The notes below the pieces were generated by a model. The model saw nothing but the letters and a program-made list of their open reading frames with translations. It had not been told where the DNA came from and did no database searches. A stretch of DNA of 57,324 bases, the filler included, from Malassezia furfur (taxonomy: Eukaryota), in NCBI GenBank assembly GCA_052055015.1. It is 3 parts of 3 records of this genome, joined end to end, with 100 filler letters (N's around TTAATTAATTAA, not from the genome) between each part and the next. Parts side by side here need not be neighbours in the genome. Positions count along the whole stretch, not along the records: positions 38,439 to 57,324 come from JBQJIT010000199.1; 2 more parts are not named here. The stretch is one strand, 5' to 3'. Position numbers and translations under genes: made by a program. Position 1 is the first letter of the stretch; each line of letters starts with the position of its first letter. Below are positions 7,811-46,514 of this stretch, in pieces.

Positions 7811-8093
7811 TCTTTGAACCTACTGTACATTTCTCCTAGATAGACTTGCGCTTTACGGTGAATATACCCATTATCCTGGTTACCGGTCTGATACGATTTG
7901 CGCCCATTCCTGCAATCTATGGGGTTTTGGAAAGGCATAGATAGTGCTTATCTAGACGCCACATGGCCAATTAATTCATTTTCCTGGCGCCTCCACTTCT
8001 ACGTACATCAAATTGGAAATCTCGAGACTCGGTTAGTGATTAGTGACTCGATTAAGCCTTCGTGTTTCCCATTACACAAGCGGCAGGCCCACT

Positions 8094-9416
8094 ATGGAGC
8101 TAGAGACAGACCGAAGGGACATGGTCTATCGAGAGGATCCAAACGACGATAAACTTGAGCCTTCTGTGACTAGCGAGGAGTCTGATTCAATCGTTATCTC
8201 TCCTGACGATGAGTCGATACCCGATGGCGGTTTCACTGCGTGGCTTCAGGTCTTGGGAGCGTTCTTTATGTATTTTAACACATGGGGAGTGGTTAATTCC
8301 TTCGGCGTGTATCAGACGTATTACGAAAACAATCTGCTTGCCTCGGAGGGCTCATCACGAATCTCCTGGATCGGCTCAGTGCAGGGTTTCTTGCTCATGG
8401 TTTCTGGGACTCTCACTGGGCCCTTGTTCGACTTGGGCTACTATCGTCATCTTCTTGTCGTTGGTACCATCTTGAGCGTGCTCGGTATCATGATGACTAG
8501 CATCTGCAAGAAATACTGGCAAGTCATGCTCGCACAGGCAGTATGTGTCGGCAATGGCAATGGATGTATGTTTGTCCCCTGCGTTGGGATTACAACAACC
8601 TACTTCTCCAAGAAGCGTGCGCTAGCTATTGGCATTGGTGCCAGTGGAAGCAGCCTTGGCGCCGTGATCTACTCTATTGTGTTCCATCGGCTGGTGGGAC
8701 CCACGGGATTCGGTAATGCAACGCGCGTCATCGGCTACATGATGCTCGGGATGCTCTCTATTACAACAGCCGTGATGCGTACTCGGGTTGCTCCTACGCA
8801 TAAGCGTGCATTCCTTGCCCTCAGTGCGTTCAAGGAACCACCCTATGCCTTCTTCTCCCTCGCAATTTTCCTTGGGTTCATGGGTCTCTATGTTCCTTTC
8901 TACTACATCTCTTCGTATGGTATTGACAAGATTGGCATGAGCGACAACCTGGGGTTCTACCTGGTCCCTATTTTGAATGCGGGCAGCATTTTTGGTCGCC
9001 TGTTCCCCAACTACATCGCCGACGTAATTGGGTCGTTGAACGTCATGACGATCTTTACGTTTGCTTGTCTGGTGCTTGCGTTCGCATGGATCGGAATTAA
9101 AAACTCTGCTGGGATCATTGTGTTTGCTGTCCTTTATGGCTTGTGCTCAGGAACGTATGTTTCGCTTCCTCCCGCAGCCATCTCTTCGTTGACCAAAGAC
9201 ATGCACCATGTCGGCTCACGGCTCGGTACGTGCTTCATTGGAGGTGGCATTGGGATCCTTGTGGGCAACCCCATTGCCGGTGCGTTGGTGAATACCGAAG
9301 AAAAAAGCTTTTGGAAAGCGCAAGTCTTTTGCGCCGTGCTTGTCTTTGCCACTGTGGTATCTCTGGCCCTTGCCCGTATTTCCAAAACCGGCCTTGTTCT
9401 GAATGTCAAGGCGTAA
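8094..9416 (+). CDS. MFS transporter, monocarboxylate porter (Mch4/Mch5-like) family, tandem paralog
   Basis: PDGGFTAWLQV...FNTWG..NSFGVYQTYY motif; colinear with the upstream paralog. Confidence 0.9.
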   Translation: MELETDRRDMVYREDPNDDKLEPSVTSEESDSIVISPDDESIPDGGFTAWLQVLGAFFMYFNTWGVVNSFGVYQTYYENNLLASEGSSRISWIGSVQGFLLMVSGTLTGPLFDLGYYRHLLVVGTILSVLGIMMTSICKKYWQVMLAQAVCVGNGNGCMFVPCVGITTTYFSKKRALAIGIGASGSSLGAVIYSIVFHRLVGPTGFGNATRVIGYMMLGMLSITTAVMRTRVAPTHKRAFLALSAFKEPPYAFFSLAIFLGFMGLYVPFYYISSYGIDKIGMSDNLGFYLVPILNAGSIFGRLFPNYIADVIGSLNVMTIFTFACLVLAFAWIGIKNSAGIIVFAVLYGLCSGTYVSLPPAAISSLTKDMHHVGSRLGTCFIGGGIGILVGNPIAGALVNTEEKSFWKAQVFCAVLVFATVVSLALARISKTGLVLNVKA

Positions 9417-11114: not shown

Positions 11115-11868
11115 ATTTTCACCAAGCGCTCATATCCCAACAAGTACAGTTCTCGGTTTCCCTTCTTCATCAGTGTTCTATTAAACAAAACTCGTAACAA
11201 TTGGCATCTCCTTAGGAACAACGAAGCTTACACGCTCTAGCTTCCCTTACTTCGCAGCTCTTGATCATTATAAACCAGGATGGGGCCGATAGAACCCTTC
11301 AATCTTCAGAGGGGACCACTGACAAACTCTTCATGAAATTGCTCTCCATATACGTTTTATTGCACCATCGTGCTATAAGACGTGGGGAAGACATCTGGCT
11401 GTTGCAATGTCTGCACGAGATGGGCAGCTGATACATTAGCATGCATTACGCAAGATTGCGAACGTGCTCGAGTGTATCAGCTTATGTCACCATATGCCCT
11501 CTGATGATAAGCCAAGGAGATTGATCGAGTGCAGGCCTTATCAAATGGACTGCGCACCTGCTGCGCGGGCTGCGAAGGGACTCTGTACTCCGGACGGGTT
11601 AAACGCGCAGCATCGAAATCATTGGTCAGGTTTGACGCGCTGAATTTAACGCAATCTAGGGAATTAAACTCAAATGGTTGACGGACAGCGTGATTTACAT
11701 GTGAGGAATGGATCCCTTTGCACCCGGTAAGGGATAGGCGCTATCAGTTGATATGCGTAGTGCGGCTAAGCTATCAAAAAGGATACAAGAAATCATGCTT
11801 TAAATACCGGTATTGGGAATTCTCGTACTTTACCTTCCACGGTCCAACGCCCTACTACTTCACCAAGC

Positions 11869-14328: not shown

Positions 14329-14833
14329 TTGCCTGTCCTTCCTGGCATATTCTATAAGGGGTGATATGATATGGGAATATGTGTGCAAGGGAATATTCTT
14401 GGAACGACCTCGGGTTCAAGGAGTCTAATCTCGACATCTTGCGAATACATAGATGCCTGAAGAGGCTTCTTGCGTGAGCAACAAATTTTACGATTACGCC
14501 GCAATCAGCATCACCGATATGCAAACGCCCAAGGCCAATGATCCGCGCCCGCCAATCTACTATATACGCCCCGCATTTTGGTCCATTAAATGCGTGTGCC
14601 GGATTGGCGGAATTTGGCTCAGGGGCGTCAGTTCAAATCTCCTAGTGCTGCGCATATCACTCGAATGAGCAAATCGAGGGAGATATGCTGACTAATCTAT
14701 ACGACATGTTATCAGTTTGATACGATGGGGTGCATGGCTGCTATCGAAAGCTGAGGCTGCCTTGATCTTTAAAAGCCGGGAAGAATCTTTGGTTTCTGGC
14801 AAGCTACCAGCTTCATTCTTTCTCTAATTCAAC

Positions 14834-17287
14834 ATGGCGGACGAGAAAGCAGAGCTCGCAGGGGATGAGTACTTTTACCATCCGCCCGCCGTGGAGGAGG
14901 CCGCCGAGCAGGTCACCCCTGCCGACCTCAACCAGCACGAGATCGCGCAAGCCGAGCATGAGCTTGGGGATATCGTGGATGACCGCATCGATGACCCCAA
15001 CATGGACGCCGACCTTGTCCATGATGCAGAGAAGGCGCTTGAGACGGGCGATGTGAAGCACGAGGTGACCCTGGGTCATCTCATTGAAGAGGACTCGCCG
15101 TATGTGGAAGTCCGTGCTGCCGTCAGCAATGTGGACGATCCCTCGATGCCTGTCAACACGTTCCGTGCATGGTTCCTGGGAACTATTGCCGTGATTGTCG
15201 TTCCTGGTCTGAACCAATTCCTGTACCTGCGTTACCCCAGTACGACCGTGTCGGGCTACTGTGTTATCATCTTCGTGTACCCCATGGGTACGTTCCTGGC
15301 ATGAACTCTTCCCAAGTACACTTTCAAGACTCGCCTCGGTAATTTCTCGTTAAACCCGGGTCCCTTCAATGTCAAGGAACATTCACTGATTTCGATCATG
15401 GCGCTCATGTCGTATCAATCCGCGTACGCTGCCGGTATCCCTGCCGTGCAAAGGTTCACGCTCGGTGTCGGTGACTACGGCTTTGGCTACGGTGTTCTCT
15501 TGATCCTCAGCACGCAGCTTCTGGGTCTTGCCTTTGCGTCGTTCTGCCGTCGCTTCCTGGTTTGGCCGTCTACGATGATTTGGCCTAACAATTTGCCGAA
15601 AGCGACGCTTCTTAACTCGCTGCACAATGTCAAGACCACGGATGGAGTGAACTTTACAGGGATGTCGCGCTACAAATTCTTCTGGATTGTATTCACGGTG
15701 CTCTTCTTCTACCAGTTCTTCCCGACGTACATCTTTACGCTGCTGAGTATCGGTAACTGGTTCTGTATCGCGGCGCCGAACAATGTCATTCTGAACCAGA
15801 TGCTCGGCACGCAGAGTGGTCTCAGTCTGCTGCCTTTGACCTTTGACTGGACGGTGATTGCCTATGTGGTGGACCCCTTGGCGACGCCGTGGTGGTCGCT
15901 GGCCAATCTTCTCGGTGGTTTCATCGTTTTCTTTGTCATTGCGTGCCCCTTCGTTTACTACTATACCGATTCGTGGTATGGAAAGTATCTGCCCATGTTC
16001 TCGACTTCGTCCTTTGATCGATTTGGGCAGTCTTACGAGGTCAGCCAGGTGGTCGACAAACTTCCGGGTGGTGGTATGGTGTTCAATGCGGACAAGTACA
16101 ACAACTACTCGCTTATTTACCTTCCGTCTGCCCTGACGATTAGCTACATGCTTTCGTTTGCATCGGTCACGGGCGTGTTGGTCCATGTGGGTTTGTTCCA
16201 CGGCAAGTCGCTGTACCGCCAACTGCGTACCTCGCCGATGGCGGCGACGGACATTCACAACCGCCTGATGAGCAACTACAAAGAAGCGCCCTACTTGTGG
16301 TACTTCGTCTTGTTCGTGGCAGCCTTTGCCATGGGCGTTGGTGGTATCCATGGATGGGAGACGGGTATGAATGCGGGCCACTTTGTCCTCGCGATTGTGA
16401 TCGGTGCTGTGTTCATGATTCCAATTGGTGTCATCATGGCGCTGTCGAACATGGAAGTCGGTCTGAACATGATTTCGGAGCTGATTATTGGTTACATGAA
16501 CCCTGGTCACCCCATTGGCATGATGATCTTCAAGACGACCATGTACATGATCACCTACCAAGGCATTCAATTCATCCAGGACCAGAAGCTTGCGCACTAC
16601 ATGAAGGTGCCGCCGCGTTCGGTGTTCATGGCGCAGGTTTACGCCACTGCGGTCGGTGGTGTTGTGCAGCTGGCTGTGCAGACGTGGGCCTTCTCCAACA
16701 TTAACGAAATCTGCACTGCTCACCAAATTGACAAGTTCAACTGTGCTTCGTACAAGGTGTTTGGTACGGCCAGTATCATTTGGGGTCTGATTGGACCGGC
16801 CAAGTCGTTCAGCGTTGGCCGCCACTACGCCCACCTGATGTACGGCTTCCTGTTCGGTGCGGTGGCCCCTATCCCCATCTGGCTGCTCGCCAAGAAATAC
16901 CCCAAGAGCCTCTGGCGTATGGTCAACATGCCCGTTATCTTCACTGGTACTGGTAACATTCCCCCCGCGACTGGTGTCAACTACCTTCCTGCCATTCTCA
17001 TTGGCTTCTTCACGCAATTCATCTGGAAGCGCAGGCACTCGCTTTCGTGGTCCAAGTACAACTATATTCTGTCGGCTGCGCTCAACGCCGCCTCGGCAGT
17101 TGCTACGGTGTTCATCTTCTTCACGCTGCAATACCCCAATGGTCCCAACGAGGACTTCCTCAACAATGGCTGGTGGGGCAACTCGGCGTGGCAGAACACG
17201 GCGGACTACAATGGTACCGCGTACATTCAGCTCCCTGATGGGCAGGCGTTCACTGGCACGCCTTTGGAACTCGGCCAAACTGCATAA
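14834..17287 (+). pseudogene. OPT family transporter (copy 2) interrupted by one in-frame TGA (15302-15304) at a Trp codon position; status uncertain
   Basis: Colinear with copy 1: GKFLGWVLPTRKFKT versus GTFLA*TLPKYTFKT. Frame is unchanged across the stop and all OPT motifs are intact. Confidence 0.8.
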
Positions 17288-19186: not shown

Positions 19187-19286
19187 NNNNNNNNNNNNNN
19201 NNNNNNNNNNNNNNNNNNNNNNNNNNNNNNTTAATTAATTAANNNNNNNNNNNNNNNNNNNNNNNNNNNNNNNNNNNNNNNNNNNN
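19187..19286. other. Artificial contig linker (N44-TTAATTAATTAA-N44)
   Basis: Six-frame stop spacer between N runs. Confidence 0.97.
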
Positions 19287-22200: not shown

Positions 22201-24808
22201 GTGCGCCGACAGCGCGGGGTCGTTCAGGATGGTGATCAGCGCCTCGATCGCCACGTTCTGGTAGTACTCGTCCGTGCTCGTGCCGATCATCGTCGCGAGC
22301 TCAAACAGATCCGTCGTGCCCGCCGGGCCGCCCGCGGACGTCGCCGAGACCGTGTTCGACTCGAGCCCGTTCTCGAGCAGCTTGTGCCGGTACGGGTCGA
22401 GCGCGCCGAGGATGCCGAGCACGCGGATCGTCTCGCGGCGCACGGGCGGCGCCTGCTCCGTCTTGAGGATCTTGACCATCGAGCCGAGCAGCGTGGGGTA
22501 CGCCAGGTACGGGTTCATCACGTACCCCGTGTTGCTCGCGATGCGCCCGAGCGTCTTGAGCGCCGCGTCGCGCTTGGCCAGCGACGAGTGCACCGGCACG
22601 CTCGAGAGCTGCGTCACGGTGAGCGACACGAGCTCGTCGAGGTGCGGCTTGAGCTCCTCGCCGCCGACGCGCGCGAGCTCGCCGAGGCACTCGAGCACCC
22701 GCGCCGACACGCCGGGGTGCGGGTCGTTGGCCTTCGGCAGGAGCACCTCGAGGATCGTCAGCGCGTAGCTCTTCACGAGGCGCTGCGACGCCTTGACCAC
22801 GCCGGTGAGCAGCTTGGCGATCTCCTCCTTGTGCCGGCTCGCCGTCGAGTACTCCAGGCCGGTGAGCAGCTGGATGAGCACCTTGCGCAGCGACGGCATG
22901 ACGTAGGCGGGGTTGTGCTTCGCGAGGCGGCCGAGGATGCCGATCGCCACCTCGCGCACCGCAAACTCCTCGTCGTTTAGCGCGATAAAGATGGAGCGGA
23001 TGTACTCGGTCTGCGCGAGGTGCCGGTCAAAGTGCTCGTCCAGCACACTCAGCACCGTGTACCGCAGCTCCGCGTCGGGGTCCGCGATCGCAACCGTGAT
23101 GAGCTTGTCGAGCACGTCGTTGAACACCTCGATCGCGTGCATGCTCGTCTGGTAGCAGATCGGGTCGTTGACAAACATGTGCGCGCACGTCACCGCCGCG
23201 GCCTTGCGCACCTCCTTCGACTCGAGCTCGAGGTACGGCAGCGTCGCGTCGCGCACAAACTCGTTCAGGATGTGCCCGCTGAAGTCGAACGAGCCCAGCG
23301 TCTGCAGCGCAACGGTGAGCAGCTCGGCGCCCTTCGCGTCCGGCGCATTGTTGATCACAAACGGCTGCACCGGCGTCCGCCGCGGGAGCGGCGCACCGAG
23401 CGGCCGGTACGGCACGCCGATCAGGATGTGCGACAGCATGTGCAGCAGGCGCTCCTGCACGATCGGCAGCAGCGTCGGGATCGCCTGCACGATCTGCTCG
23501 AGCGCAGACACCAGCGCGGTGCTCAGCCCGCACGCAAACATCATGTCGAGCATGTCGTGCACGTCGCGCTCCACCACGTCGCCGACCGCCGCGACGAGGT
23601 GCCCGATGCAGAAGAACGTCGGCGCCTCGGGCGGCGCATTCTTCTTGCCCTTCATCTGCAGCGACTCGCGCGCGGCCTGCATGATCGGCTCCACGAACGG
23701 CGCCATCTTGGGGCCCATCGCGGTCGACACCAGGCCGATCGCCTCGAGCGTGTCGCTGTACGCCTCCTTCGTCGACTGGTTCCGCTCGCGCCCGAGCTGC
23801 TCAATGAGCGCATGCATCACCGGGCCGAGGTACTCGTCGGCAAAGTACTGCGGGTCGTACGCGGCGAGCACCGGGATCAGGTTCGTCACCGTGCGCTTGA
23901 TCAGCGGGTCGCGGTGCCGGTGCAGGCGCAGAATCAGCTCGCACGTTCGGTGCAGCCGCGTGCGCATAAACGTCTTCGAGTGGCGCAGCAGCTTGAGGAT
24001 CGCCAGCAGGCTGCCGTGGATCGTGTCGACCGAGGCGTCCTTGAGGCCCTGCTCGGCCTCGTCGTAGATCGTCTCGTACGCCTGCGTACCCATCTGCTTC
24101 TCGCGCTTCGAGATGATCTGGAAACACGCGCCGAGCGCCTCCGCGGCCGCCTCGCGCACCGCGACTTTCGGGTCGCGCAGCGCGACCCAGATGTGGTCAA
24201 TCACACGTCCGACGTAGGCATGGAACAGGTACGGCACGTTGCGCGCGATCTCTTTGATGATCAGCACCGCCGCATACCGCCCGTTCTCGTTGCGGTCGCC
24301 CTGCAGGAAGTCGAGCGCACGCAGCACCTCGAACTCGATAAACTGGTCGCCCAGCGAGTGCCCACCGTGCTTCGACACGCGGCCCAGCACCTTGGCCGCG
24401 GCAATCATCACCTGCGGGTCATTGCACGGCAGGTTCGGCTTGAGATATTGGTAGAAGCGGTACAGCCGTGCGCTGTTGTCCTCGCTCTCGAGCCCAATAA
24501 AGTTCTCGATCGCGGTGATGCCCCCGAGCTTGCTCGCGGTCTGCACGCTGTGGGTGAGCTCGATGATGCGGCGGTTCAGCTCATTGTTGAATGCCTGGAG
24601 CCGCTCGCCCTTGAGCTCCGAGGTCATGTACGACGCAAAGCTCCCGAGCTCCTTGCCCGCCTTCGCACGCGTGTCCTTGTCGCTGGGTGAGCCGTCGTGT
24701 GACGTACCGGCTCTTGAGCTCTGTGAAGATCCGCGACAATGTCTCGGACGGCTGCATCGACTGTGACACGACAGACGGTGAGCTCGTGATCGACATGGGG
24801 GAGATCAT
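19287..24808 (-). CDS. TOR1: TOR kinase (HEAT repeats and FAT domain; FRB and kinase lost at contig end); 25-nt intron 24683-24707
   Basis: Motifs LRESPSHALRAC, YAKALHYKE, LQDTLRLLTLWF and HPQALVYPLTVA. Intron GTACGT..CTCAC.CCAG joins ELKSR/DKDTR in frame. Start ATG is 24808 or 24796. Confidence 0.95.
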
Positions 24809-25368: not shown

Positions 25369-27744
25369 ATGAGTAGCCCGCTGGTGTTTGCCTCTGAGCT
25401 CGCGGGACACACGGGCGACGTGCGTGCGCTCGCGTCGCACCGCACGCCGGACGGCATCACGCTGCTGCTCTCCGGCTCGCGCGACCAGACCGCGCGCCTG
25501 TGGATCCGGCGCACGGACGGGTCGTTCGAGAGCGTCGTCATCGACAACAGCGGCAACGGCTTTGTGAACGCTGTGGCGTTCTTTGAGGATATCGACGGGA
25601 AGCGTACGTGCGGAAACTGACGTCGCAGTGTACGCCCTGACAGGCGGGCAGGACGCGCTCATTAATGCGTACCTCGTGTCGATCAGCGGCAACGGCCACG
25701 TCAAGGTGTCGGGCTCGCCGCGGTTCACGCTCGTGGGCCACGCGGACAACGTGAGCACGATCGGCGTGTACGGCAGCGAGTACATCGTGAGCGGGTCGTG
25801 GGACGCGACCGTCAAGGTGTGGAAGCACTGGGAGTGCGTCGAGACCTACACCAAGCACGAGCTGGCGGTGTGGAGTGTGCTGCCGATCGACGCCAACCGC
25901 TTCGTGTCGGCGTCCGCGGACAAGGGCGTATACCTATGGGCGATCGAGAAGCCGCGCGAGCTGCTCGCGGCGTACACGGGCGCGACGCAGCCCGTGCGTG
26001 GCCTCGCACAGCTCTCCTCGTCGGCGCTCGCGGCGTGCGGCAACGACGCACAGATTCGCGTCTACCCCCTCGACGCCCAGGGCGACGTGCCGCCGCAGGC
26101 GAGCATGGGCGGGCAAACGAGCTTTGTGTACGCGCTCGCCGCGCTCGGGCAGGATACGCTCGTGAGCAGCGGCGAGGACCACACGCTCCGGGTGTGGCAG
26201 CGCGGCGTGTTGGCCCAGGTCATTACGCTGCCGGCCATCTCGTTGTGGTGCGTGTGTGCGCTGCCGAACGGCGACGTGGCGTGCGGCACAAGCGACGGGC
26301 AGGTGCGCATCTTCACGCCGGACGCCGCACAGACGTCCGCGGAGCGCATCGCCGCGTTCGAGGCGTCGGTCGCCGCGCAGGTGCTGGCGGCCGCCGAGAT
26401 CGACGCGGACGTGCCGAGCGGCGAGCGCACGCTGCTCGACCAGCCGGGCACGCACGAGGGCGCGACGTGCGTCGTGCACGACGGCAGTCGCCGCGAGGTG
26501 TACCGCTACAGCACGCACGCCCAGGCGTGGAAGCGCATCGGCCAGATCACCGAGGCGGCCGGCGCGTCGCAGAAGAAGATGCACAACGGCCAGGCGTACG
26601 ACTACGTGTTTGACGTCGACGTCGAGGACGGCGCGCCGCCGCTCAAGCTGCCGTACAACGCGAACGAGAACCCGTACGAGGCCGCCCAGCGCTTCCTCAG
26701 TACGTACGAACTGCCGGCTACCTACCTCGACCAGGTCGTGCAGTTCCTTGAGAAGAACACACAGGCGGTCGGCCTCGCGCCGCCGCCGGCCGCCGCCGAC
26801 CCGTACACGGGCGCGTCGCGGTACACGCCGGCGCAGACGTCCACGGCACCCGCCGCGCCGCTCGACCCCTTTACCGGGGCCGGGGGGCTGACGAGCGCTG
26901 CGCGTTCGCTGCAGGTGCTGCCACACCAGCAGTACCTCGCGTTCGGCCAGGCGAACGTCGGTGCAGCGCGCGCCAAGATTGCCGAGCTCGCGGGCGCAGA
27001 TGCGCCGCTGTCGGACGCGCAGGCCGCGGCGCTCGATGCGCTCGTCGACGCGCTGCAGACCGGTGCGCCGGCGCGCATCGATGTGGTGAGTGCGCTGCTG
27101 TCCACGTGGCCCCTTGCGAAGCGCTTCCCGCTGCTCGACCTGCTGCGCGTCGCGGCGGGCAAGCCGAGCGCGGCGCCGTTTGCGACGTTTGCCACCGACG
27201 CGCTCGTCGGCGCCGACTGGGACGGCCTCGCGACGCAGGCCGACCGCAAGGCCGCCGAGACGAATGCGATGCTGGCGCTGCGCACGCTCGCCAACGGCTT
27301 CGTGGCGCCGCGCGGCGCCGAGGCCGTCGGCGACATGGCGCTCGAGACGCTCGCCACGCTGCAGCAGCCGCCGTGGGACGTGCTGAACAAAAACGCGCGT
27401 ATTGCGCTCGCGACGATTGCGCTCAACTTTTCCGTGCTGGCGGTGCGCGCGACGTCGTTTGCGCAGGGCGAGCTGCTGCTCGCGCTGATCACAGAGGTAC
27501 GTCGCCCACACTCACCCAGCTCCTTGCCTCGGACAGCGACAGCGAGACGGCGTACCGCGCGCTGATGGCCCTCGGAAACCTTGTACGTTGTTCTGCCTAA
27601 CATTAGCTCTACTCTTCCGCAGGCAGCGCGTTGAGCGCTGCATCACGCCGCACCGCCCTCGACCTCGCGCAGGCCTGGGCGACGCGCGCGCCCGAGGCGC
27701 GTGTGACGACAGTGTGTGCGGACCTTGCGCAGCTGCAGCCCTAG
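25369..27744 (+). CDS. DOA1: Doa1/Ufd3/PLAA ubiquitin homeostasis protein (WD40-PFU-PUL); introns 25604-25628 (25 nt), 27497-27519 (23 nt), 27583-27606 (24 nt)
   Basis: GHTGDVR and SGSWDATVKVW WD repeats; YDYVFDVDVEDGAPPLKLPYN PFU motif. Splicing restores DSETAYRALMALGNL. Confidence 0.92.
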
Positions 27745-28844
27745 AGGGGGCGGCCGTAGTCGTCGATATGCAGCCGTGCCTGCCGCACGCGCCAACACAG
27801 GCACAGCACGAGCAGGATGGCCTGCAGCGTGCCGGCAGCAATGTACGCCAGCAGCGATGTCCAGTCGGGGCCCTCGCGCGACGCCAGCGCATACACGAAC
27901 AGCACCATGCCGGGCACCTGCAGCATCATCGTCGGAATGCTCAGGCTGCGCACGAGCCGCGCACGTGCCGTGTGCACAATCTGCGGCAGGTACTGCAGCA
28001 CGGCGAGCACCGTGCCGGTGATCCCCAGGAAGCGCGCCCAGTGCCGGATGTAGCGGTGGTGCGCGTGCATCGCGAGCAGCGCCGTGGTCACCACCGCACA
28101 AAACACCCAGAAGCCCGCGGTGATCCACGCGAGCGTCGTGCCCAGGTGCCATTCCTGCACGGTGCCCGCCTTGCCCGTGATCTCTTCCTGCTCGCCGGGC
28201 AGGTAGTACACCTCGAGGATGCGCCGCATCGCGCGGGGGATGTTGCGGTACGTCGTGTGGTCGCGTGCAGCATGCGTCTCGTGCGGGCGGATGTCGACGT
28301 CGGGCGACACCGCTCTATAGCTCTGGTTGAAGTGCGAGTGGATCTCTTCCAGGTCACTCTCAGACGCCGACGACTCTTGCCCATCGTCCGCCTCGGCGGG
28401 CGGACGCAGGCGCTCAGTCTCGTGCGGCGCACCCTGCTGGCGGCGCACGCGCCGCGCGCGGCGCAGCGGCGAGTCGTCCACGACGTAGTACAGCAGGAAA
28501 AGCACAAAGCTGCGTTAGTCACACCGCACGTACATGGCCGTGAACATGAACCACTGCAGCGACACCTGCAGAATGCCCATCATATGCTCCAAGCAGCTCA
28601 GGCCACTCAGCTTCGCGCAGCACCGCACAATCGGCCACTGCAGCACAATCACATTGAACATGGCACACGCGCTCGACGTCGCGCCCAGGAACAGAAACCA
28701 AGGCGAAAGACCCACGGACGAACGCGAGAGACGAATGCGCATTGCCTGGGGGATGTACGAAAGCACCACACCCACGCACACCACGGCTGCAGCCGCAAAC
28801 GCGGGGCCGTTGTGCGGCAAATCGCACTGGTCCTTTCTCCACAT
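27741..28844 (-). CDS. PQ-loop repeat membrane protein; 24-nt intron 28510-28533
   Basis: SYIPQ and QYLPQ motifs with hydrophobic helices. Intron GTACGT..CTAAC.GCAG removes an in-frame TAA. Confidence 0.85.
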
Positions 28845-29416: not shown

Positions 29417-30482
29417 CTCCTATTGGCCAACTGCTTGTTCGCATTGGAAAAGTCGCGCACGATGATCTCGCACTTGACCGTGTCGCACAGCTTCTTGGAT
29501 GCTTGCTTGATGGCCGGCGGGAACAGCGTAAGGCCCGCGGCGCGCTCCACGCTTTCGACTGGGTCAGCTGTGCGCGCAACCTACCGTCCGTCTCGAAGCT
29601 GCGCAGCGGCGCCGAATCCGGAATCATGCTGTTTGGCACCACAAACGCGCCAAGCGCCATGGGCGCGCCGCCCAGGCCGGCCTTGGCGATCAGCGAGCCG
29701 CTCTCACCCGCCTTGAGGCCCGTGCCCAGGATCACCTTGGCAAAGTGCGTCGGCACCGACACACTGGGCGGCGAGCCAATCACCTCGTACGACACCCGCC
29801 ATTTGCCGTCGGACGTCTGACGCGGCAGGTACAACGGGATGGTGAACACGTAAAGGTCATCAAACTTGCTCGTGAGGCGGCGCACAAAGTCTTCCGTGTG
29901 CGCCCAGTAGTCGCGGTTCATACCTGCGCCCACCTGCGGCGCAATGTTGCTTAGCAGGAACGTTTCGTTCATCGCCGCCTGGCTCGACTTGACGTCGGCC
30001 GCCGGCACCATATGCCCACGATCGTAACCCGAGCGGAAGTAGGCCGCGTTGGTCGAGCGGAACAGCTCGGGGATGCGCATGTCTTCGGTAAAGAACGAGT
30101 TGGCACGGTTCGCCCCGTCCGGCCCAGGCTTGCGCTGGATCGACGCAGCGGTGAGGTGCTCGGCCGTCCAGTTAGGGTGTCGCAGACGACGGTCGTAAGA
30201 CGACACATAGCCCTGGTGCTGCAGGAGCTGGTCCACGGGGCCTGGGTTGCCCGACAGCGCCAGCGCATCCGATAGGGGCGCCACGACGGCAGCGGTCGGT
30301 ACAGCGCCAGGTACGGCGGCCGGCGCTGTGGCCGGCGCGGGCGTGGGGGCGACCGCACCCGCAGGAACGGTCGTCGTGGGCACAGCGCTCGGCTTGGCGC
30401 TCGAGCGCTGCGCGAAATATGCCACGCTCCCCCCCAGCACCGCACCGCCAGCAAAGAGGCCCACCTGCGCTGCCACGCTCAT
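29413..30482 (-). CDS. NUC1: Mitochondrial endonuclease G; 26-nt intron 29559-29584
   Basis: YDRGHMVPAAD active site, TFLLSNIAPQ and VPTHFAKV. Splicing restores VESVERAAGLTLF. Confidence 0.92.
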
Positions 30483-34191: not shown

Positions 34192-35392
34192 CTACTTTTG
34201 CAAGCCGAGCAACGTGCGAACCTCGCGCACGGTTTGGGCAGCGCGCTGGCTTGCCTTGGTGCGGCCGAGCTCGGCGACTTCGTCGAGGTAGCCCGGTTCG
34301 TTCACCAGCTTGGCATACTCAGTCTGGAACGGCCGTAGCGCCTCGACGATGCTCTCCGTGAGCACCTCTTTAAGCTGGGCGCCCGAGCCGCCCGTGACAT
34401 CTTGGAGCACGGCCGCGACGCTGGCGGGGTCGGGATCGCCTTGTACGCCGACGAGGCGCTCACGCACGGTGCCGCCACCAAATGCCGCGAGGATCGAGAT
34501 AAGGTTGCTCATACCTGGCCGGCGCTCGGGTTCGTAGGTGATGCTTCGTTCGCTATCGGTCACAGCCCGCCGGACCTTGGCGCGGATTTCCTCCGGGGAG
34601 TCGGTCACGAGGATGCGAGAGTTGGCATCGGGTGCCGACTTGGACATCTTTTGCTCCGGATTGCGCAGGGAGAGGATGCGCTTCGTGGGGGTGAGCATGT
34701 ATTCCGGCTGCCGAAAGTAGCGCTTCTTGACCGCGTTGTTGAACTGGTGTGCAATGTCGCGCGTGAGCTCGAGGTGTTGTGTCTGATCCTCGCCGACCGG
34801 GACATGCGTGCCGTGGTAAATGAGGATATCGGCCGCCTGAAGCACCGGATAGGAGAAGAGGCCGAGCTGCAGCTGTGCCTCGTTCACCTTGTCGCTGTCC
34901 TGCACGGTCGCGAGTTTCGACTTCCAAGTTGTCATACGCTCGAGCCGCCCAAACGACGTGACGCAGGAGAGGAACCACATGAGCTGCGTGTGCTCCGGCA
35001 CCTCGTCCTGGTGGAACAGCGTGCATCGATGCGGGTCGATGCCGGTCGCGACCAGGGCGGCCATCATGTTACGCCGGTCCTGGTAAAGCCGCGTGGGGTC
35101 CTGCGGTACAGTAAGGGCATGCAGATCGGCTAGGAAAAAGAAGAGCTCGTCGTCTGGCGCGGCCGTGTTCTGCAAATCCACCCAGCTCTTGAGCGCTCCA
35201 AGGTAATTGCCGATCTGCGTGAGTGGGCATGCGACGTACGTGCGGAATGCCCGTCGGCTGAATGCCGGACACGATCACGCGGCGTGCCTTGCCGCTCGGT
35301 GCCCTGGCCGCCTGCGCCACGGCCGTGGCCAACGTGCGCGCCTGGCCCAGCGGCGCACGGTGCCGGCGGCCCAAGCTCAACGCCCAACGCAT
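34192..35392 (-). CDS. MSW1: Mitochondrial tryptophanyl-tRNA synthetase; 25-nt intron 35215-35239
   Basis: Splicing restores SGIQPTGIPH/IGNYLGA (HIGH motif); KMSKS, YPVLQAADIL and VPVGEDQ motifs; Arg-rich presequence. Confidence 0.93.
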
Positions 35393-38338: not shown

Positions 38339-38438
38339 NNNNNNNNNNNNNNNNNNNNNNNNNNNNNNNNNNNNNNNNNNNNTTAATTAATTAANNNNNN
38401 NNNNNNNNNNNNNNNNNNNNNNNNNNNNNNNNNNNNNN
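38339..38438. other. Artificial contig linker (N44-TTAATTAATTAA-N44)
   Basis: Same spacer as 19187-19286. Confidence 0.97.
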
Positions 38439-38493
38439 TCCTAATCCTAATCCTAATCCTAATCCTAATCCTAATCCTAATCCTAATCCTAAT
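38439..38493 (-). repeat. Telomeric repeat (CCTAAT)9, i.e. (TTAGGA)n on the G-rich strand
   Basis: Perfect hexamer array at a contig start with the C-rich strand 5', followed by AT-rich sequence. Confidence 0.9.
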
Positions 38494-38934
38494 GAAGGTA
38501 TACGACTAAGTCTCTTCATATAGTCCCCTGATGCTCTTCTTGCATCATATTGCTTTAATCAATACATGTTTCAGGAACATATTCAACGCAGTGTTTTTTA
38601 CCCTTAGTGATGACGATGTTTTTGCTTAATTAAACCTTCACCCAATTTTTTTTTTTTTTTTTTTTTTTACTTTGAATGCTACTTTGAATGCTTTCTCTTG
38701 TTCCTAGGATGATATACTCAATGGTAATTACATGTAAGTGTATGAAGGGTCAGTTTGAAGGATTGAATCGGACTTTCAATACGCAACTCCACATCTGGTC
38801 CAACGTTGGCTTTCGCCAGTCTGTTAAATTAAATTGGCCCATTTTGAACAACCGGACGATGTGGAGTGATCAATGGACCTGCGAAAATGCATACATACTA
38901 AGACAACGACATTTCATGGAGTCGACTAATCGGG

Positions 38935-40743
38935 CTACATGTCTTTACACACGGTCGACGTAGCAATAATACCTTCCACAGTCTTGGCGATTGACAGAAT
39001 TTTTTCTTCCTGGAATCGTCGACCAACCATTTGTATACCGATAGGCATCCCCTCGTATTTCTCGGGCAAATCTGCATGAGCGTAGTACACATACACGCTT
39101 CATATACGGCCTTATCCATCTCACTGTTAAATTCACTTCGTTGCTCTTGAGGTAAAGCCTCTGCTGTCGCTAGAGGCATTGAAATACTGGTATATTGTAG
39201 CACATTCACGACAGCCGTATACCCTGGGTTAGAAGATTACGAACCGAGATAATTTGGACCACCACGGTCCCAGCTAACAGCTGCTGTGTTAGGCATTAGG
39301 AGAGCGTCCATAGATCTTTTGGCCTCAGTAACATTTGCTGTCGCATTCCATGCATGATCATATTCTCTCGTGTAGGCGACGCGATCGGCACTCATTTTCC
39401 AGACCTCTTCTGCACTCACGACCTTCCTGTCCCCCCGTGCTTTGCCCATAATTTCGGCCACTTCGTCAATGAGTGGCTCTCCTGATTCCTCGCAAAGTGA
39501 ATGAATTGCATTGCCGCCGCACTGCGTCATCGTCGACATCTGCATTAATACAGATCAACTCACCCATAGGTCGTTAGCTCTTTGATGTGAAGGGGGTTTG
39601 AACATAATCACTTCGTGACCGGCTTGACGAAGGGCATTCGCAATTTGTTCCAATGCGTTGCGAATTGGTGGTTGAGGAGACACATACCCATCATCAAGGA
39701 GTAGTCCAAAAACAAGTCGACTCGGTGCCTTGTAGGGCCTCCAAGGAAGCTCCACAACCTCGGGATCTATTTCCCACAACTTGGAATCCAACGCGATCTT
39801 GGTGAAAAGCTCCAGGCAAGCAAGAGTATTTCCCATTGGTCCTATCACCGATGGAATAGACAGTTGTCCGACGATCTGCGTTAGCATGAAATTTAGATCA
39901 TACCGTTCTTCGCTTTCCGCGGGGAGAGAAACGGCCCGGAGAGGCTTTCAATCCCCAAATACCATTAAGACTAGATGGAATACGAACAGAACCACCTGTA
40001 TAAGTGCTTCACATACCAATGTCTGTACCAACCCCCAGTAATGCTCCACGTTGCGCGAGCAGAGAACCTTCCCCCCCTGAGGAGCCACCAGCCGAACAGC
40101 ATCGATTGTATGGATTGCAGGTCCGTCCAATAATGTAGTTTACAGTTTCGATTGACTGCATAAGCCATGGACGTACCATTACGCTGGTTGGGACATTGGT
40201 TTTTACATGGAAAACTGCACCAGATGCTCGAAGAACTGGGACAATACCATCTTCGTCTTCCTTTTTTGCAGGACCATCGAGCCAGGCAACAAATCCAACA
40301 GACGTTTCATACCCTTCGACAAAAAATTGATCCTTCAAGGAAATGGGAACACCGTGAAGAGGGCCAATAGTCTTTCCCGTCCGTTGGAGGTGCTCATCCA
40401 GACGGTCAGCCTCGTTTAATGCAGATTCAAGCATAAATTCACACAAACAATTTGTCTAAATTAGTATTGTACTCACCAGCTGATGGGCAATCGCAGCACG
40501 GTGAGCGAATGACTCTGTCACCTTTCGTGAAGTAAGCTGTCCCGATGCAATGGCTGCGGCTAGAGGTTCAAGATCCATATCAGTTATACGCCGTTCCTCC
40601 TCACTGAGCTGACTGGCGACGTATTTGATGACATTAGGCAGGCTTTCAATGTTAGGTACATTCGTTAAGTGCCATTTCTTCGGTATCGCCTTCAGCACAC
40701 TTGCCCGTTTCACATTGGCGTGTAGCTCCCATTCTTTGCTCAT
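38935..40743 (-). CDS. Amidase-signature family enzyme (acetamidase/FAAH-like), 549 aa, 8 exons
   Basis: Introns 40456-40476, 40156-40176, 39996-40016, 39876-39903, 39540-39563, 39224-39244, 39072-39094. The spliced 1650-nt CDS has GPLHGVPISLKD, GGSSGGEG, GTDIGGSVRIP and GMPIGIQMVGRRFQEE. Confidence 0.9.
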
Positions 40744-40996
40744 GTTTGGGTCCATGCAATGGCTGCAAATTGAGATTTGTCTACATAGACTTGGTATCAA
40801 TAACCTTCAGCTGTTTAAAGACATCTCTACTTTTTATCAATAACATTTACTCCGACTCGGCATACAAGATAAGCTAACAATCACCATAGCTCTCGTTCTT
40901 GAAATAATTATTACATTAGATAAGCGGTGCTTCTCCGTGTAGGCTCTCGGACGGATTCACAATAACATATGCATTTGAGGCGCCGGGAACTAACGG

Positions 40997-42016
40997 TTAA
41001 GAACTAACCATTCTGAGTGGCTGAACGACAAGGCGGAACTTTCCTTGCTTGTCTGCCCGCATCCCTGCTTTCCGTTCCGCATTCAGCTCTGCAGTCCTCT
41101 GAGCCACAATTCGCTGTTTGTAGGCGTCAATTTCTTCTTGTCTCGTTTTAGCCGATGTTTCCGCTGGAGCAACTTTTTTAGACCCCGAAATCCTGAAAAT
41201 CCCGTGCAAAATACCCCTTGACCTTAGTTCAGGCACATCTGGAATATCAGAACCGTTAATTCGTAGTCCAATTTCCACGGGCGGTGCACCCAAATAGCTT
41301 CTGTCGCCAGGGAAAAATCCAGTGAGCCGCTGGTTCCCACATGCAACGAAAACATCCAGATTTCGAGGCATAAAAAAGTTGTGCTGATAGGTCTCGACGA
41401 GAGCAAGTACATCAGGTATATAGTCGTACTCTTTATAACGAAGAGACCACTTCGTAGATAAGTTACGTCCGTATACCGCGCCGATCGAGGCCATTAGTCC
41501 AAGAGCCGGGCTCGCCACCCAATAATCAACAGCTCGGAGAGCTCCTGCAACGCGCAAATTCAAGAGAAAGCGATCCCAGTCGACAGCACTCACATCGTGA
41601 TCGACCATTACTGGCCCCGGGTAACGCCGCTCAAAACCCCTGCCGATTCGACTTGAGTGTAATCCGGGGAGATAAAATGGTTTGAATGATGAATACGTGG
41701 GGCCTGCGACATTTTGTGGGGGAGCTGGACGTCGGAATGAAGCAGGAATCTCGTCCAAGGGCCTTCCGGGTTCGACATCTCTCGATGCGCGCATGTGCCC
41801 CATGAATGACCTTGAAGGAAGTACCGGTGGTGCAAATTTGTCCCGCTCAGTCGGAGACCAGTCCGGGCTGATGGGTACGAGGATAGATGGGCAACCTTTG
41901 ATCATACCTGAGGCGTGTTTTCCGTTTGTTTGATTGGTAGCTGCCTGTGTGACAGGCTTTGGCGATATTACCTCACCATCTAGGTGCTGAGTACTTTTGG
42001 TGGAACTATCCGCCAT
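40997..42016 (-). CDS. Hypothetical protein, 339 aa
   Basis: ATG-initiated long ORF in ~50% GC sequence; no function recognised. Confidence 0.75.
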   Translation of the reverse strand: MADSSTKSTQHLDGEVISPKPVTQAATNQTNGKHASGMIKGCPSILVPISPDWSPTERDKFAPPVLPSRSFMGHMRASRDVEPGRPLDEIPASFRRPAPPQNVAGPTYSSFKPFYLPGLHSSRIGRGFERRYPGPVMVDHDVSAVDWDRFLLNLRVAGALRAVDYWVASPALGLMASIGAVYGRNLSTKWSLRYKEYDYIPDVLALVETYQHNFFMPRNLDVFVACGNQRLTGFFPGDRSYLGAPPVEIGLRINGSDIPDVPELRSRGILHGIFRISGSKKVAPAETSAKTRQEEIDAYKQRIVAQRTAELNAERKAGMRADKQGKFRLVVQPLRMVSS

Positions 42017-42615
42017 GAATGTAACTATTGGAGTTACCCGCCTTCCGTCTGCTCACCCCCCACGAGTTCAAATGATAGAAGAGCGCATGATCTCTTATTG
42101 ATTAACCAGTGATATGTCGTTTGCGAAATCACGCAACACGCAATGGAGCATCGGCCAAGACTTAAAACTTAGGTGTGCACAGACAATGTAGTTCGGTTGA
42201 TTTCAGACGCTAAATTTAGGCATCGGCCTGGACCAGTGTCAGGCTCCACTTGCACAGTCAACAGAGAATTGCCATTCCTGAGCGAGGGCTCGGTTTTTAT
42301 GATGCCCAATAATCTGCGCGCGAGTGTGGGTCACATGTAAGCATTTGTCATCGCCGATCCTTTTGCTATACATATGATATCATATATCTCTGTTCTCCGC
42401 GCGCAGCTGCAGAACCAATCGCGACTGACGCCATTCCGACGACCGACGAAATTGATACGTATTTCTCGCGCGGCAACCCTAGCGTGTTTATTCGTAAAAC
42501 CCATACCCGTGGTCAAATTTGGTAGTCAAAGCAGATTCCTGCCCTCATAGGCCAGAAGTGCAAGCCAAGAGTCTTGGCGCTCTTGGGAATCAGAATCGCC
42601 CGTTGACAAGCCACC

Positions 42616-44593
42616 ATGTCGAATACCCACACTGGTGAGAATGTCGATCCAACGGCGAATGGTGCAGGCGAAACCATTGAGGTGCCTGGCACCCCAGAAA
42701 TGACGGTTGCTGACACGGGCAACGGTAACCTCGAGGTTCTGGAAGCGTCGCAGGGGCCGCCCAAGAGGGTGCCGAAGCCAACGAAGATTGATCTGCCTCC
42801 TTCGCAAGCCCAGGACGGCACTAATGCATCGGACAGGCCTCCGACCCCTAACTACACGTATGCAGAAGACCCCCAGGGACATCTGAATCCAATTTATGAG
42901 GGCAGCGGGCCGGGTTATGAGCCTGAGCCGAAAATGCGCCGAGAGAAGCGTCCCGACGGCAAGATTGAGCTGTCCGGTCGGATGGCTCCGAAGGTTGTCG
43001 GGTTTGACTGGCCAACCTGGAAGAAGTGGATGATTTTGTGTGTCGTTTTCATGGTGCAAGTCAGCATGAACTTCAACACTTCTGTGTACCCCAACGCGGT
43101 TGCGCTCATCCCTGAGGACGAGCGTTTCCGCGGTGTTAGTGAGCAGGGTGCTCGTGTGGGTCAGATGATTTTCCTGGTCGCCTATGCGTTCGGATCTGAG
43201 GTACGTGCTTATTCTGTGAAGAACAGGTGTATTAACACAATTAGCTTTGGGCGCCTTGGAGTGAGGAGCTCGGCCGCTGGCCTGTCATGCAGCTCTCACT
43301 GTTCCTTGTGAACTGCACGCAAGTGTGGGCAGGCTTTGCGCCCAACTTTGAGAATCTCATCGCAGCCCGTTTCTTCGGTGGTCTCTTCACGGCCGGTGGC
43401 AGTGTCACGCTCGGCATTGTTGCTGACTTGTTCGACGTCGATGACCAACAATATGCTATTGCTTTCATTGTACTGTCGTCCGTGGCTGGTACTTCCGTGG
43501 GCCCGCTCATTGGTGGCTTTATCTCGGGTGGTGTCAAGAGCGAAAAGAAGTACCTTACGGCTCTCTACTGGATCTTCTGGGTCCAGCTTATCTTTGGTGT
43601 TGTCACGCAGCTGGTCCACATGTTTGTTGTGCCTGAGACACGTGAGACGATCCTGTTGGACCGCGAGGCGAAGCGGCGCCGCAAGGCCGGTGAGACCAAC
43701 GTGTATGGTCCGAATGAGCTGGAGCACCACCGGTTCAGTCCGAAGAAGATTCTGATTACTTGGCTGCGTCCATTTGACATGCTTGTTCGTGAGCCCATCG
43801 TGCTCTCTCTTTCGCTGCTCAGTGGTGTAAGTCTTGGACTTTTTGGCGCGATACTAACTGTCAGTTCTCGGATGCGCTCATTTTCGTGTTCTCTGAGTCG
43901 TTCGAGACTGTGTTTGCCAAGTGGAACTTCACCACCATTGAGACTGGTCTTGCGTTCATCCCGATTAACCTCGGATACGTCTTTGGGTTCTTCTCCTTCT
44001 TCCCTACGATCCGGAACCAGCGCAGGATCCGCAAGGAATCGCCTGATGTTCTTACGCCGGAGATCCGTCTATGGTGGCTGCTGTGGACGGCGCCGCTGGA
44101 GCCCCTTGGCCTGTTTGGTTTCGCATGGACTTCCCTGGGTCCGCCTTACACCCACTGGATTGCGCCGATGATTTTCGAGGTTCTGATTGCAATTGCCAAC
44201 TATGCCATTTACATGGCCACGATTGACTATATGGTTGCTGCCTATGGTCCGTACTCTGCTTCGGCTACGGGTGGTAATGCGCTTGCCCGTGATTTCCTTG
44301 CTGGTATTTCTGCGATGTACTCGGTCCCTATGTACACCCAGATTGGCTCCAACGAGCATCTGCAGTCTGCCTGGGCGACCACTATCTTGGCCATTCTCGC
44401 CATCGTTGTTGTGCTTCCCGTGTTCCTTTTCTACTGGAAGGGTGAGCTGATTCGTTCTCGTTCTCCGTTCGCTCAAGACATCATGAAGGCGCGCAAGACG
44501 GACGACCCTGTGCTTGTGGAACCGCCGGAGCAGATGGACGAGGAGAAAATGATTCACCACCACAAGCACAATCAACAAGGAGACCATGAATAA
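42616..44593 (+). CDS. MFS transporter, DHA1 family; introns 43201-43244 (44 nt) and 43827-43864 (38 nt)
   Basis: WPTWKKW, LWAPWSEELGRWP, PETRETILL and YSASATGGN motifs; splicing joins three ORFs in frame. Confidence 0.9.
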
Positions 44594-45475
44594 TTGTTGA
44601 CAAACCGTTACTGAGTTTGCTCCCGATGGTCCGCACAGCATTAAAAATGCAAACCTGTCAAGGATACCAGGTTCTCTCTACTTGCATAATGAAATATATG
44701 GGGAATTTTTAGTCTCGTATAGATGGCAACAGAGTGTTCCTTTATTGGTCTGTGATTTAACTTGCTCCTTGTGTTGGCTCGCATCTTGTCGCGTATGAGG
44801 CCATGTATGCGTATCGAGCGAACAACAGTGCCATCATAATGACTAAAGTAAATGTAGACGAAATTACCCAAATTCAACCAATTTATCCGTAATGCGTGCA
44901 TAGGGGTGACAGACAAACACGGGTGGTGTGACTGCATGCTCTGGACCTTGCAAGGTTCAGTCGAAATGGACATGTAAATGGTACCTACACGTCACAGCAA
45001 CCCTCTTAAGTGTCTAAATTTTAGGTAGTAATCTAAACCGCATTTACTGGGCGAAGGCATAAACAGCCGTAAACAGATATGTGGGTCATGTTCTAACGTT
45101 TCGTGTCGGTCAGATGAACAAAGACCGGTAGCATGGCCTACCTAATCTGGGTCGATTTAGAGCATCAGCCTCTTTCACCTAGCCGGCAAACCAGGTACCT
45201 CCGCGGAGCAGACCTTGTCCAACCACTTTAATTAATGCATGGGCATGAGATTTGCAATGACGACATATGTGCCTGGGGGCGGCCTTCTCTAGCGAATACC
45301 TGGTAGAGCAGTCTCAGCCCCAAGGGCTGACCGCGAGGCAATCCTCCACACAGAACATGTGAAAAAGGACAATATCCCGTAGCCCCGCAATTTAAAACTG
45401 CCCTAATAGAGTGGCGATTGGCCTCGATCGTGTGTCTTCTGTCTAGGCGGAACCTTTGCCCGGCACTCTCCCGCC

Positions 45476-46514
45476 ATGTCTTCCAAATATGATGAGCGGC
45501 CCAGACCATATGCAGATGGCTGGAAATTTAAGGATCCTTCCGAGATGACCTATGCCCAGCGGCAGATCATCAAGAGGCAGATGTTGAACCCAAGTCCCAA
45601 AGAATACGATTATCCAAAGCCACAAGGCAAAGTCCCTGTCTTTCTGGAGCGGGACCAACACTTGCGCATCTTTCCCTTCGTGGTGCTTCCCATCGCAACG
45701 CGGTGGTTGTATATGTGGCTGACCGGGTGGACGGCTCATCCTGTGGCGGTCTATGTGCTGACCGTCGTGTTCAATGCAACATTTGTCAGACATTACTTCC
45801 AGCGACTGCGTGAATACACTCAGACCTACGGGTTCCTGGATGGCAATGTCGCTCGCGATGCGATTCCCGAATCGATGACCGGAAAACTCTATAAGGAAAT
45901 GATGACGGGTCTATTGGGCCGGCCTCTCATGGTCATGATGCTTGCGTATGATCGGCATGCTATGTCCAGGCTGGACTGGTGGCTCCCGCTGCAGATTGGT
46001 TTCTTCACTCTGATCGCCGACTTTGTCTATTACTGGGTGCATCGGGCGACGCACGAGGTTGCTGAGTTGTGGCACTTCCATCGGCGCCACCATACGACCA
46101 AACACCCCACCTCCTACCTTCTCGCCTTTGCAGACGAGCCGCAAGAAATCTTTGACGCGTTTGGCACACCCATTTTGGCCTATATGTTCTACCCGATCCA
46201 TTTCGATGCGCTGTACATCTGGGCCATGTACTTCCTGACGATTGAAATCATGGGCCACTCAGGGATCCGCATGTATTACCCTGCAGTGCTGGTACGTACG
46301 GTGTGACACTGACCGCGCACAGACCTCGAGTATTTTGCGCCCATTTGGTTGTGAAATTGTGATTGAGGATCACGACCTGCACCACCGGCACGGATGGCGT
46401 GAGAGCTACAACTACGGCAAGCAGTCGCTTCTGTGGGACGCATTATTCGGCACGAATGGCGATCGTTTCGAGACGCGCGTCGACAACATCGACTGGGACC
46501 ACCGCGTCAAGTAA
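45476..46514 (+). CDS. Fatty acid hydroxylase / sterol desaturase superfamily protein; 31-nt intron 46292-46322
   Basis: His boxes HRATH, HRRHH and HDLHH; NYG...LWDALFGT motif. Confidence 0.88.

Follow-up and report, generated by a model that had tools for sequence, protein, structure and literature searches.

An amidase gene at a contig end

The 57,324-nucleotide (nt) stretch of Malassezia furfur DNA analysed here (assembly GCA_052055015.1), referred to as the window, carries on its minus strand a gene of the amidase-signature family that is interrupted by seven segments of 21-28 nt. The window is made up of three contigs, which are separated at 19187-19286 and 38339-38438 by spacers of the form N44-TTAATTAATTAA-N44, and features are not to be read across these spacers. 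The third contig starts with a telomere-like array of nine TCCTAA units (complement TTAGGA) that is found nowhere else in the window (8 overlapping 12-mer matches, 0.06 expected). As the stop codon of the amidase (38935-38937) is located ~440 base pairs (bp) from this array, the amidase is the first gene inboard of the telomere-like contig end. The gene had been called subtelomeric in a preliminary description of the locus, and it does lie within a few kilobases (kb) of a terminal telomere-repeat array. Four different telomere motifs are reported for the genus Malassezia (PMC12506658). TTAGGA, a candidate telomere motif for this organism, does not appear in the accessible part of that text.

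The preliminary description had proposed that the open reading frames (ORFs) seen at the locus are pieces of one amidase split by seven GT-AG segments. Each of these segments has a single occurrence in the window, which is on the minus strand and agrees in place and length with the proposal. Their deletion from 38935-40743 leaves 1650 nt, i.e. 549 codons and a stop codon. The uninterrupted frame was thereby recovered; the protein length of 549 amino acids (aa) is less certain, the start codon being ambiguous, since a further in-frame ATG located 12 nt upstream (40755-40753) would add the residues MDPN and possibly bring the protein to 553 aa. The motifs said to be rejoined by the deletions were found at aa 87-92 (HQL/TNC), at aa 225-235 (GTDIG/GSVRIP, with the codon of G229 split) and at aa 460-464 (YLG/YT, with the codon of G462 split). 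If retained, introns 1, 3, 5 and 6 introduce in-frame stops and introns 4 and 7 shift the frame. The coordinates of exons and introns are collected in Table 1.

Colinearity with amidase-signature proteins

Amidase Pfam matches (PF01425) were obtained at E<=0.0035 for five of the eight exon pieces. Exons 2, 3 and 5 exceed the 27-bit cut-off alone, and exon 4, a piece of 30 aa, falls slightly below it with 26.7 bits. The matched parts of the family profile are consecutive over junctions 2-4 (17-105, 107-151, 153-178, 181-285) and are followed by 425-445 in the last exon. The naive ORF at 40012-40455 reaches 135.9 bits against PF01425. The spliced protein contains the amidase-signature motifs SLK130DQF, GGS207S208GG and GGS231VRIP, all within conserved blocks of the homologue alignment. 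Intron 3 interrupts the codon of G229, two residues ahead of S231. The motifs holding K130, S207-S208 and S231 presumably provide the catalytic Lys, the cis-Ser and the nucleophile Ser described for fatty acid amide hydrolases (FAAH), the roles being assigned by motif only.

The homologue P0003 (516 aa, 56% identical) was used as a stand-in for structural comparison. Its match to 6kvr_A, 'Fatty acid amide hydrolase', spans residues 4-499 (E 7.5e-78); for mammalian FAAH the E value is about 1e-46. Names given to other homologues include 'Acetamidase' and 'fatty-acid amide hydrolase'. The M. furfur gene resembles these fungal amidase-signature hydrolases (6kvr FAAH and the acetamidase-named proteins) by the PF01425 matches of its exons and by its Lys/Ser/Ser motifs. 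It differs from the fungal FAAH and acetamidases in that its relatives P0003 and P0001 do not reach any NCBIfam equivalog cut-off, the top score being 191 bits against a cut-off of 428. This is very probably a functional, intron-rich gene for an amidase-signature hydrolase of the fungal acetamidase/fatty-acid-amide-hydrolase type, with amide hydrolysis as the predicted activity.

The closest named protein is the Malassezia psittaci amidase P0001, with 82% identity over exon 2 and 66% over 505 aa. When aligned by MAFFT with 13 homologues from fungi, the window protein shows neither insertion nor deletion at any junction. Oddities of this alignment concern other rows: the Cryptococcus model misses 15 residues ending exactly at junction 1, and around junctions 5-6 the alignment of P0042 (Paracoccidioides) is poor. 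Three related sequences are themselves interrupted at the junctions of the M. furfur gene. P0001 (514 aa) carries a 7-residue insert at junction 6 and breaks off at junction 7. P0002 extends from just past junction 1 to junction 4, with an insert of seven residues exactly at each of junctions 2 and 3. The homology of P0067 runs from junction 3, includes a 7-residue insert at junction 4 and is lost at junction 5. P0002 and P0067, which are unnamed and short, have the appearance of genomic ORFs of related organisms translated as they stand. The four 7-residue inserts (=21 nt) can each be back-translated to GTNNGN...CTNAY-N-YAG and are read as putative retained 21-nt introns. The deposited model P0001 appears to keep such an intron at junction 6, to terminate inside the next one and to lose ~45 C-terminal residues, in agreement with the expectation that gene finders would stumble on a gene of this kind. 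P0003 has no insert from residue 38 to its end; its gene would be intronless if P0003 were also a plain ORF call.

Splice signals, intron positions and competing explanations

All seven segments start with GT and end with AG. The 5' hexamer follows GT[AGT]NGT in six of them, the exception being intron 4 (GTATGA). A YTNAY motif places the putative branch adenosine exactly 5 nt before the intron end in 7/7 cases, forming a 9-nt module, YTNAY-N-Y-AG, so that a 21-nt intron is composed of 6 + 6 + 9 nt. The composite signal GT[AGT]NGT...YTNAY-N-Y-AG was searched on both strands of the window, and its expected frequency was derived from 100 dinucleotide-preserving shuffles. At a total length of 21-30 nt it was seen 14 times against 0.86 expected, compared with one match (18 nt) against 0.48 at 15-20 nt, which is chance level, and three against 3.88 at 31-75 nt. 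The pattern of the segments is not due to chance, because YTNAY occurs at one fixed offset in all seven and because the composite signal is enriched in the window. The 14 matches measure 21 nt (four), 23 nt (two), 24 nt (four), 25 nt (two), 26 nt and 30 nt. Six are amidase introns; five of the other eight (23-26 nt) bridge sensible protein sequence and are likely introns, and three are unconvincing. The five likely introns lie in GC-rich DNA (GC, guanine plus cytosine), in genes for a Doa1-like protein, a PQ-loop protein, a Nuc1-like endonuclease and a class-I tRNA synthetase, and in an unnamed gene. The one at 35215-35239 splits the class-I tRNA-synthetase motif GIPH/IGN.

Two further observations concern introns in the window. 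In an MFS transporter gene (42607-44168), two ORFs are connected across a candidate intron of 92 nt (43201-43292, plus strand; GTACGT...CATGCAG), which, if real, is far longer than the rest. A generic scan for introns bridging ORFs returned 174 candidates and was too noisy in GC-rich DNA to yield a length distribution. It served only to pick a few candidates and was superseded by the composite-motif scan with shuffles.

Intron positions were compared with those of more distant homologues through a metagenome scan, in which an alignment of P0001, P0003 and P0002 was the query and six loci at 30-45% identity were recovered. Three of these loci (L003, L004 and L006) bear introns, and within the homologue set they match agaricomycete amidases best, with 35-42% identity. 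The gene model of L006 encodes 560 aa, shares 40% identity with the window protein across 530 aligned residues and contains ten GT-AG introns of 49-89 nt, four of which are missing from the window gene (Table 1). The stops and frame changes between the high-scoring segment pairs of L006 are independent of the choice of intron borders. In the ascomycete-like locus L002 (~62% identity to Dothideomycete proteins), junctions 1 and 2 are not shared and the nearest intron is found after ~aa 179, in phase 1. Intron positions are thus not conserved in every fungal homologue. In their ends, 5' consensus, branch motif, restoration of the frame and positional homology (exact for five of seven, ambiguous for one, absent for one), the segments have the properties of U2-type GT-AG introns.

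Table 1. Position and properties of the amidase gene, its exons and introns, and other sequence features of the window
Feature	Coordinates	Strand	Length and sequence	Evidence	Junction in the window protein and counterpart in L006
Amidase-signature gene, start to stop codon	38935-40743	minus		ORFs, splicing in silico, Pfam, homologue alignment	
Exon 1	40477-40743	minus	267 nt, aa 1-89	N-terminus aligns with homologues; no Pfam match alone	
Intron 1	40456-40476	minus	21 nt, phase 0, GTGAGT...CTAAT-TTAG	Position and phase common to L003, L004, L006	Junction 1: aa 89, phase 0; exact match; also L003, L004
Exon 2	40177-40455	minus	279 nt, aa 90-182, K130 of SLKDQF	PF01425 17-105, E 4.6e-22	
Intron 2	40156-40176	minus	21 nt, phase 0, GTACGT...CTTAT-GCAG	7-aa insert in P0002; 49-nt intron in L006	Junction 2: aa 182, phase 0; exact match
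Exon 3	40017-40155	minus	139 nt, GGSSGG	PF01425 107-151, E 3.4e-13	
Intron 3	39996-40016	minus	21 nt, phase 1, within G229 codon	7-aa insert in P0002	Junction 3: aa 228, phase 1; no counterpart
Exon 4	39904-39995	minus	92 nt, GSVRIP...	PF01425 153-178, E 3.7e-06	
Intron 4	39876-39903	minus	28 nt, phase 0, GTATGA...CTAAC-GCAG	7-aa insert in P0067; 58-nt introns in L003, L006	Junction 4: aa 259, phase 0; exact match; also L003
Exon 5	39564-39875	minus	312 nt	PF01425 181-285, E 3e-11	
Intron 5	39540-39563	minus	24 nt, phase 0, GTGAGT...TTAAT-GCAG	P0067 homology ends; 76-nt phase-0 intron in L006 here or <=5 residues away	Junction 5: aa 363, phase 0; match pairwise, inside 5-residue gap in MAFFT alignment
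Exon 6	39245-39539	minus	295 nt	Aligns with homologues; no Amidase Pfam match alone	
Intron 6	39224-39244	minus	21 nt, phase 1, GTTCGT...CTAAC-CCAG, within G462 codon	7-aa insert in P0001; 89-nt phase-1 intron in L006, same Gly codon	Junction 6: aa 461, phase 1; exact match
Exon 7	39095-39223	minus	129 nt	Homologue alignment	
Intron 7	39072-39094	minus	23 nt, phase 1, GTATGT...CTCAT-GCAG	P0001 model ends; 58-nt phase-1 intron in L006	Junction 7: aa 504, phase 1; exact match
Exon 8	38935-39071	minus	137 nt including stop codon	PF01425 425-445, E 0.0035, under cut-off (44-aa piece); aligns with homologue C-termini	
Telomere-like array	38439-38492	.	(TCCTAA)x9, complement TTAGGA	Start of third contig	
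Likely intron	27497-27519	plus	23-26 nt class	YTNAY-N-Y-AG end module	
Likely intron	28510-28533	minus	23-26 nt class	YTNAY-N-Y-AG end module	
Likely intron	29559-29584	minus	23-26 nt class	YTNAY-N-Y-AG end module	
Likely intron	35215-35239	minus	23-26 nt class	YTNAY-N-Y-AG end module	
Likely intron	24683-24707	minus	23-26 nt class	YTNAY-N-Y-AG end module	

These comparisons bear on the possibility that the gene is a decaying subtelomeric pseudogene, with stops and frameshifts that arose by mutation and GT-AG ends that are there by coincidence. The subtelomeric location and the GC content, low relative to the remaining window, would suit such a decay, and nonsense codons do occur in this assembly: of two OPT oligopeptide-transporter genes arranged in tandem, the second (14828-17284, plus strand) has an in-frame TGA at 15302-15304, where its paralogue (11770-14325) has a conserved Trp (FLGW/FLA*). 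That codon could be a nonsense mutation, the sign of a pseudogene or a sequencing error, and does not look like an intron. Decay is nevertheless extremely improbable for the amidase, whose seven interruptions are all bounded by GT and AG with YTNAY at a fixed offset. Once they are excised, the reading frame is continuous and colinear with homologues, and the catalytic motifs are preserved. Moreover, five of them coincide exactly with longer introns of a homologue that is only 40% identical, and relatives are interrupted at the same places.

The choice of splice sites was examined with a hidden Markov model (HMM) built from 34 homologues, the window protein and P0001 being excluded. Besides the proposed model, 22 other GT-AG choices within +-45 nt that keep the frame and contain no stop were scored, as was a form retaining intron 2, which makes 24 models in all. 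The proposed one ranked first with 597.5 bits, followed by one of 590.6 and then by intron 2 retention with 588.7. A partly mis-drawn model, in which intron 2 or intron 7 (as a 17-nt alternative) is retained or spliced otherwise in the main mRNA with a local change of the protein, draws on these small differences (8.8 bits for retention of intron 2, 6.9 bits for the 17-nt variant of intron 7) and on the ambiguous start codon. It was judged very improbable for the following reasons. None of the 13 aligned homologues has an insert at junction 2, which lies within the conserved stretch KTNVPTSxM/xET, and an intron of L006 is located exactly there. At junction 7 as well, an intron of L006 has the proposed position and phase, and the 17-nt variant starts with GTGTAC and scores lower.

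A third explanation would see in the amidase a foreign gene, recently acquired by horizontal transfer or introgression into the subtelomere, which would account for both its low GC content and a density of introns that is unusual in an intron-poor genome. The gene has 47.8% GC, well under the 58-70% of much of the window, and seven introns, compared with most Pfam-positive genes of the window, which are single ORFs. Behind P0001-P0003, several ascomycete acetamidases are among the top matches of exon 2, at 58-59% identity. Basidiomycete proteins are about as close over this exon (Amylostereum 58%, Taiwanofungus 55%, Cryptococcus 51%), and M. psittaci has a copy that is 66% identical. The architecture of short introns is a local one, with the same 9-nt module as in the GC-rich housekeeping genes of the window. 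The composition is not unique to the gene either: blocks of 48-53% GC cover 38439-46000, i.e. the whole contig end in which the amidase is located, and 6000-16000 of contig 1, the other parts of the window having 56-70% GC. These blocks may be an isochore-like subtelomeric compartment or of foreign origin. A recent acquisition of the amidase itself is considered very improbable.

Since Pfam colinearity, homologue alignment, model scoring, splice signals and the junctions of relatives and of L006 agree, the seven segments are very probably real spliceosomal introns of one intact amidase gene, from which we infer that they are spliced in RNA. The preliminary description, which had read the locus in this way, is supported by these five lines of comparative evidence. 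Several observations weigh on the other side. Intron 2 preserves the frame and contains no stop; its retention would add VRPWLMQ at the modest HMM cost given above and leave a translatable message. Exons 1, 6 and 7 have no Amidase Pfam match alone, their support coming from homologue alignments only. The retained introns of P0001, P0002 and P0067 are read from peptides alone. No close relative of the window amidase was found among the six loci of the metagenome scan. Some borders in L006 were chosen by best alignment to the window protein, which leans to agreement, and L003 and L006 are apparently close kin and not independent witnesses. The GC content of the gene is well below that of much of the window. 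Finally, the spacing between branch and 3' end is not universal, because a likely 31-nt phase-0 intron (46292-46322, plus strand) in the neighbouring fatty-acid hydroxylase gene (45410-46511) has a CTGAC whose A is located 10 nt from its 3' end.

The neighbourhood of the amidase and the other contigs contain further genes. Next to the amidase, a single ORF of 351 codons (41000-42052, minus strand) encodes a DUF4646 domain (E 4.2e-15). A local family expansion near the chromosome end is represented by four polysaccharide deacetylase genes in tandem (PF01522; 46987-54522, plus strand), each a single ORF of ~490-530 aa. Contig 1 carries two secretory-lipase ORFs (LIP, PF03583; 3-1496 and 2684-5995, minus strand) and two tandem MFS transporter genes (6422-9413, plus strand). 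With 1104 open codons, the second lipase ORF far exceeds its domain, and GC-rich parts of the window commonly contain long open frames that are spurious.

Very short introns in Malassezia

Malassezia introns are known to be short, as the preliminary description had noted. The manually curated annotation of M. sympodialis comprises 5350 introns with a mean of 30 bp, 99% of which are supported by RNA sequencing (RNA-seq), according to Table 2 of its report (PMC5389616). In M. restricta, the average and median intron lengths are 37.2 and 30 (PMC9241646, Table 1), and annotators of this species worked first with a minimum intron length of 20 and later with one of 15, with AUGUSTUS run at min_intron_len=15 (PMC6473144). 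A review likewise states that Malassezia genes contain 'very short introns' (PMC7426719). The novelty implied by the preliminary description was thus overstated. Very short introns are already established in Malassezia, and the amidase is a new, rather extreme and intron-dense instance.

The amidase introns share with these genome-wide introns the GT-AG type and, judging from the tabulated mean of 30 bp and median of 30, the size class; the nearest named homologue comes from M. psittaci, and the window contains LIP lipases and other compact genes. With 21-28 nt and four introns of 21 nt, they stand at the short extreme. The seven introns in 1.8 kb also contrast with the ~1.2 introns per gene that the figures tabulated for M. 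sympodialis imply (5350 introns, 4493 genes). A printed description of a fixed YTNAY-N-Y-AG module in Malassezia was not found by title or abstract, and the word 'branch' occurs 0 times in the accessible text of PMC5389616.

Minimal introns of other eukaryotes measure about 20-30 nt in Paramecium, 18-21 nt in the Bigelowiella nucleomorph and 15-16 nt in Stentor. The amidase introns resemble them in length, in narrow length distribution and in canonical GT-AG ends. They differ from those of ciliates and nucleomorphs in belonging to a fungal nuclear genome of another lineage and in having a yeast-like CTAAC/CTAAT branch motif, so that the likeness would be convergent at best.

The gene would be transcribed into a pre-mRNA with seven U2-type GT-AG introns of 21-28 nt each. 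Every intron would begin with a GTRNGT-like 5' hexamer and close with a rigid 3' module of 9 nt, which places the branch adenosine 5 nt before the end, the two being separated by 6-13 nt. Splicing would yield an enzyme of 549 aa (or 553 aa) with intact Lys/Ser/Ser catalytic motifs. At least five of the seven introns are probably ancient, sharing positions and phases with the 49-89-nt introns of a distant fungal-type homologue. Because these five occupy exactly the same places, the lineage would have kept its introns and shrunk them, consistent with the very short introns found genome-wide in Malassezia. That most of the introns are old and were shortened to 21-28 nt in this lineage is the simplest reading of the comparison.

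The finding is chiefly of practical value. Gene finders and read aligners that do not allow introns down to ~20 nt will mis-annotate such genes as fragments, truncations or proteins with spurious 7-residue inserts, and the deposited M. psittaci model appears to show such errors at two of the seven junctions. Beyond the descriptions found in print, the gene points to a fixed spacing between branch and acceptor and to the shrinkage, rather than loss, of at least five old introns in an otherwise intron-poor lineage.

The preliminary description had also suggested 21 nt as a floor for this spliceosome. The window is compatible with such a floor, since the shortest enriched composite matches are 21 nt long and the lone 18-nt match is at chance level, although 57 kb cannot establish it. 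In its strongest form, 21 nt would be a hard physical minimum set by a rigid architecture, in which a 6-nt 5' site and no fewer than 6 nt of spacer precede a 9-nt module that combines branch site and acceptor and holds the branch A only 5 nt from the 3' end. Ancestral introns of 50-90 nt would have been squeezed to this limit and not lost. We regard this as conceivable and rather doubtful. If it were true, a culturable and transformable fungus would become a model for U1/U2 recognition on introns that barely exceed the combined binding sites.

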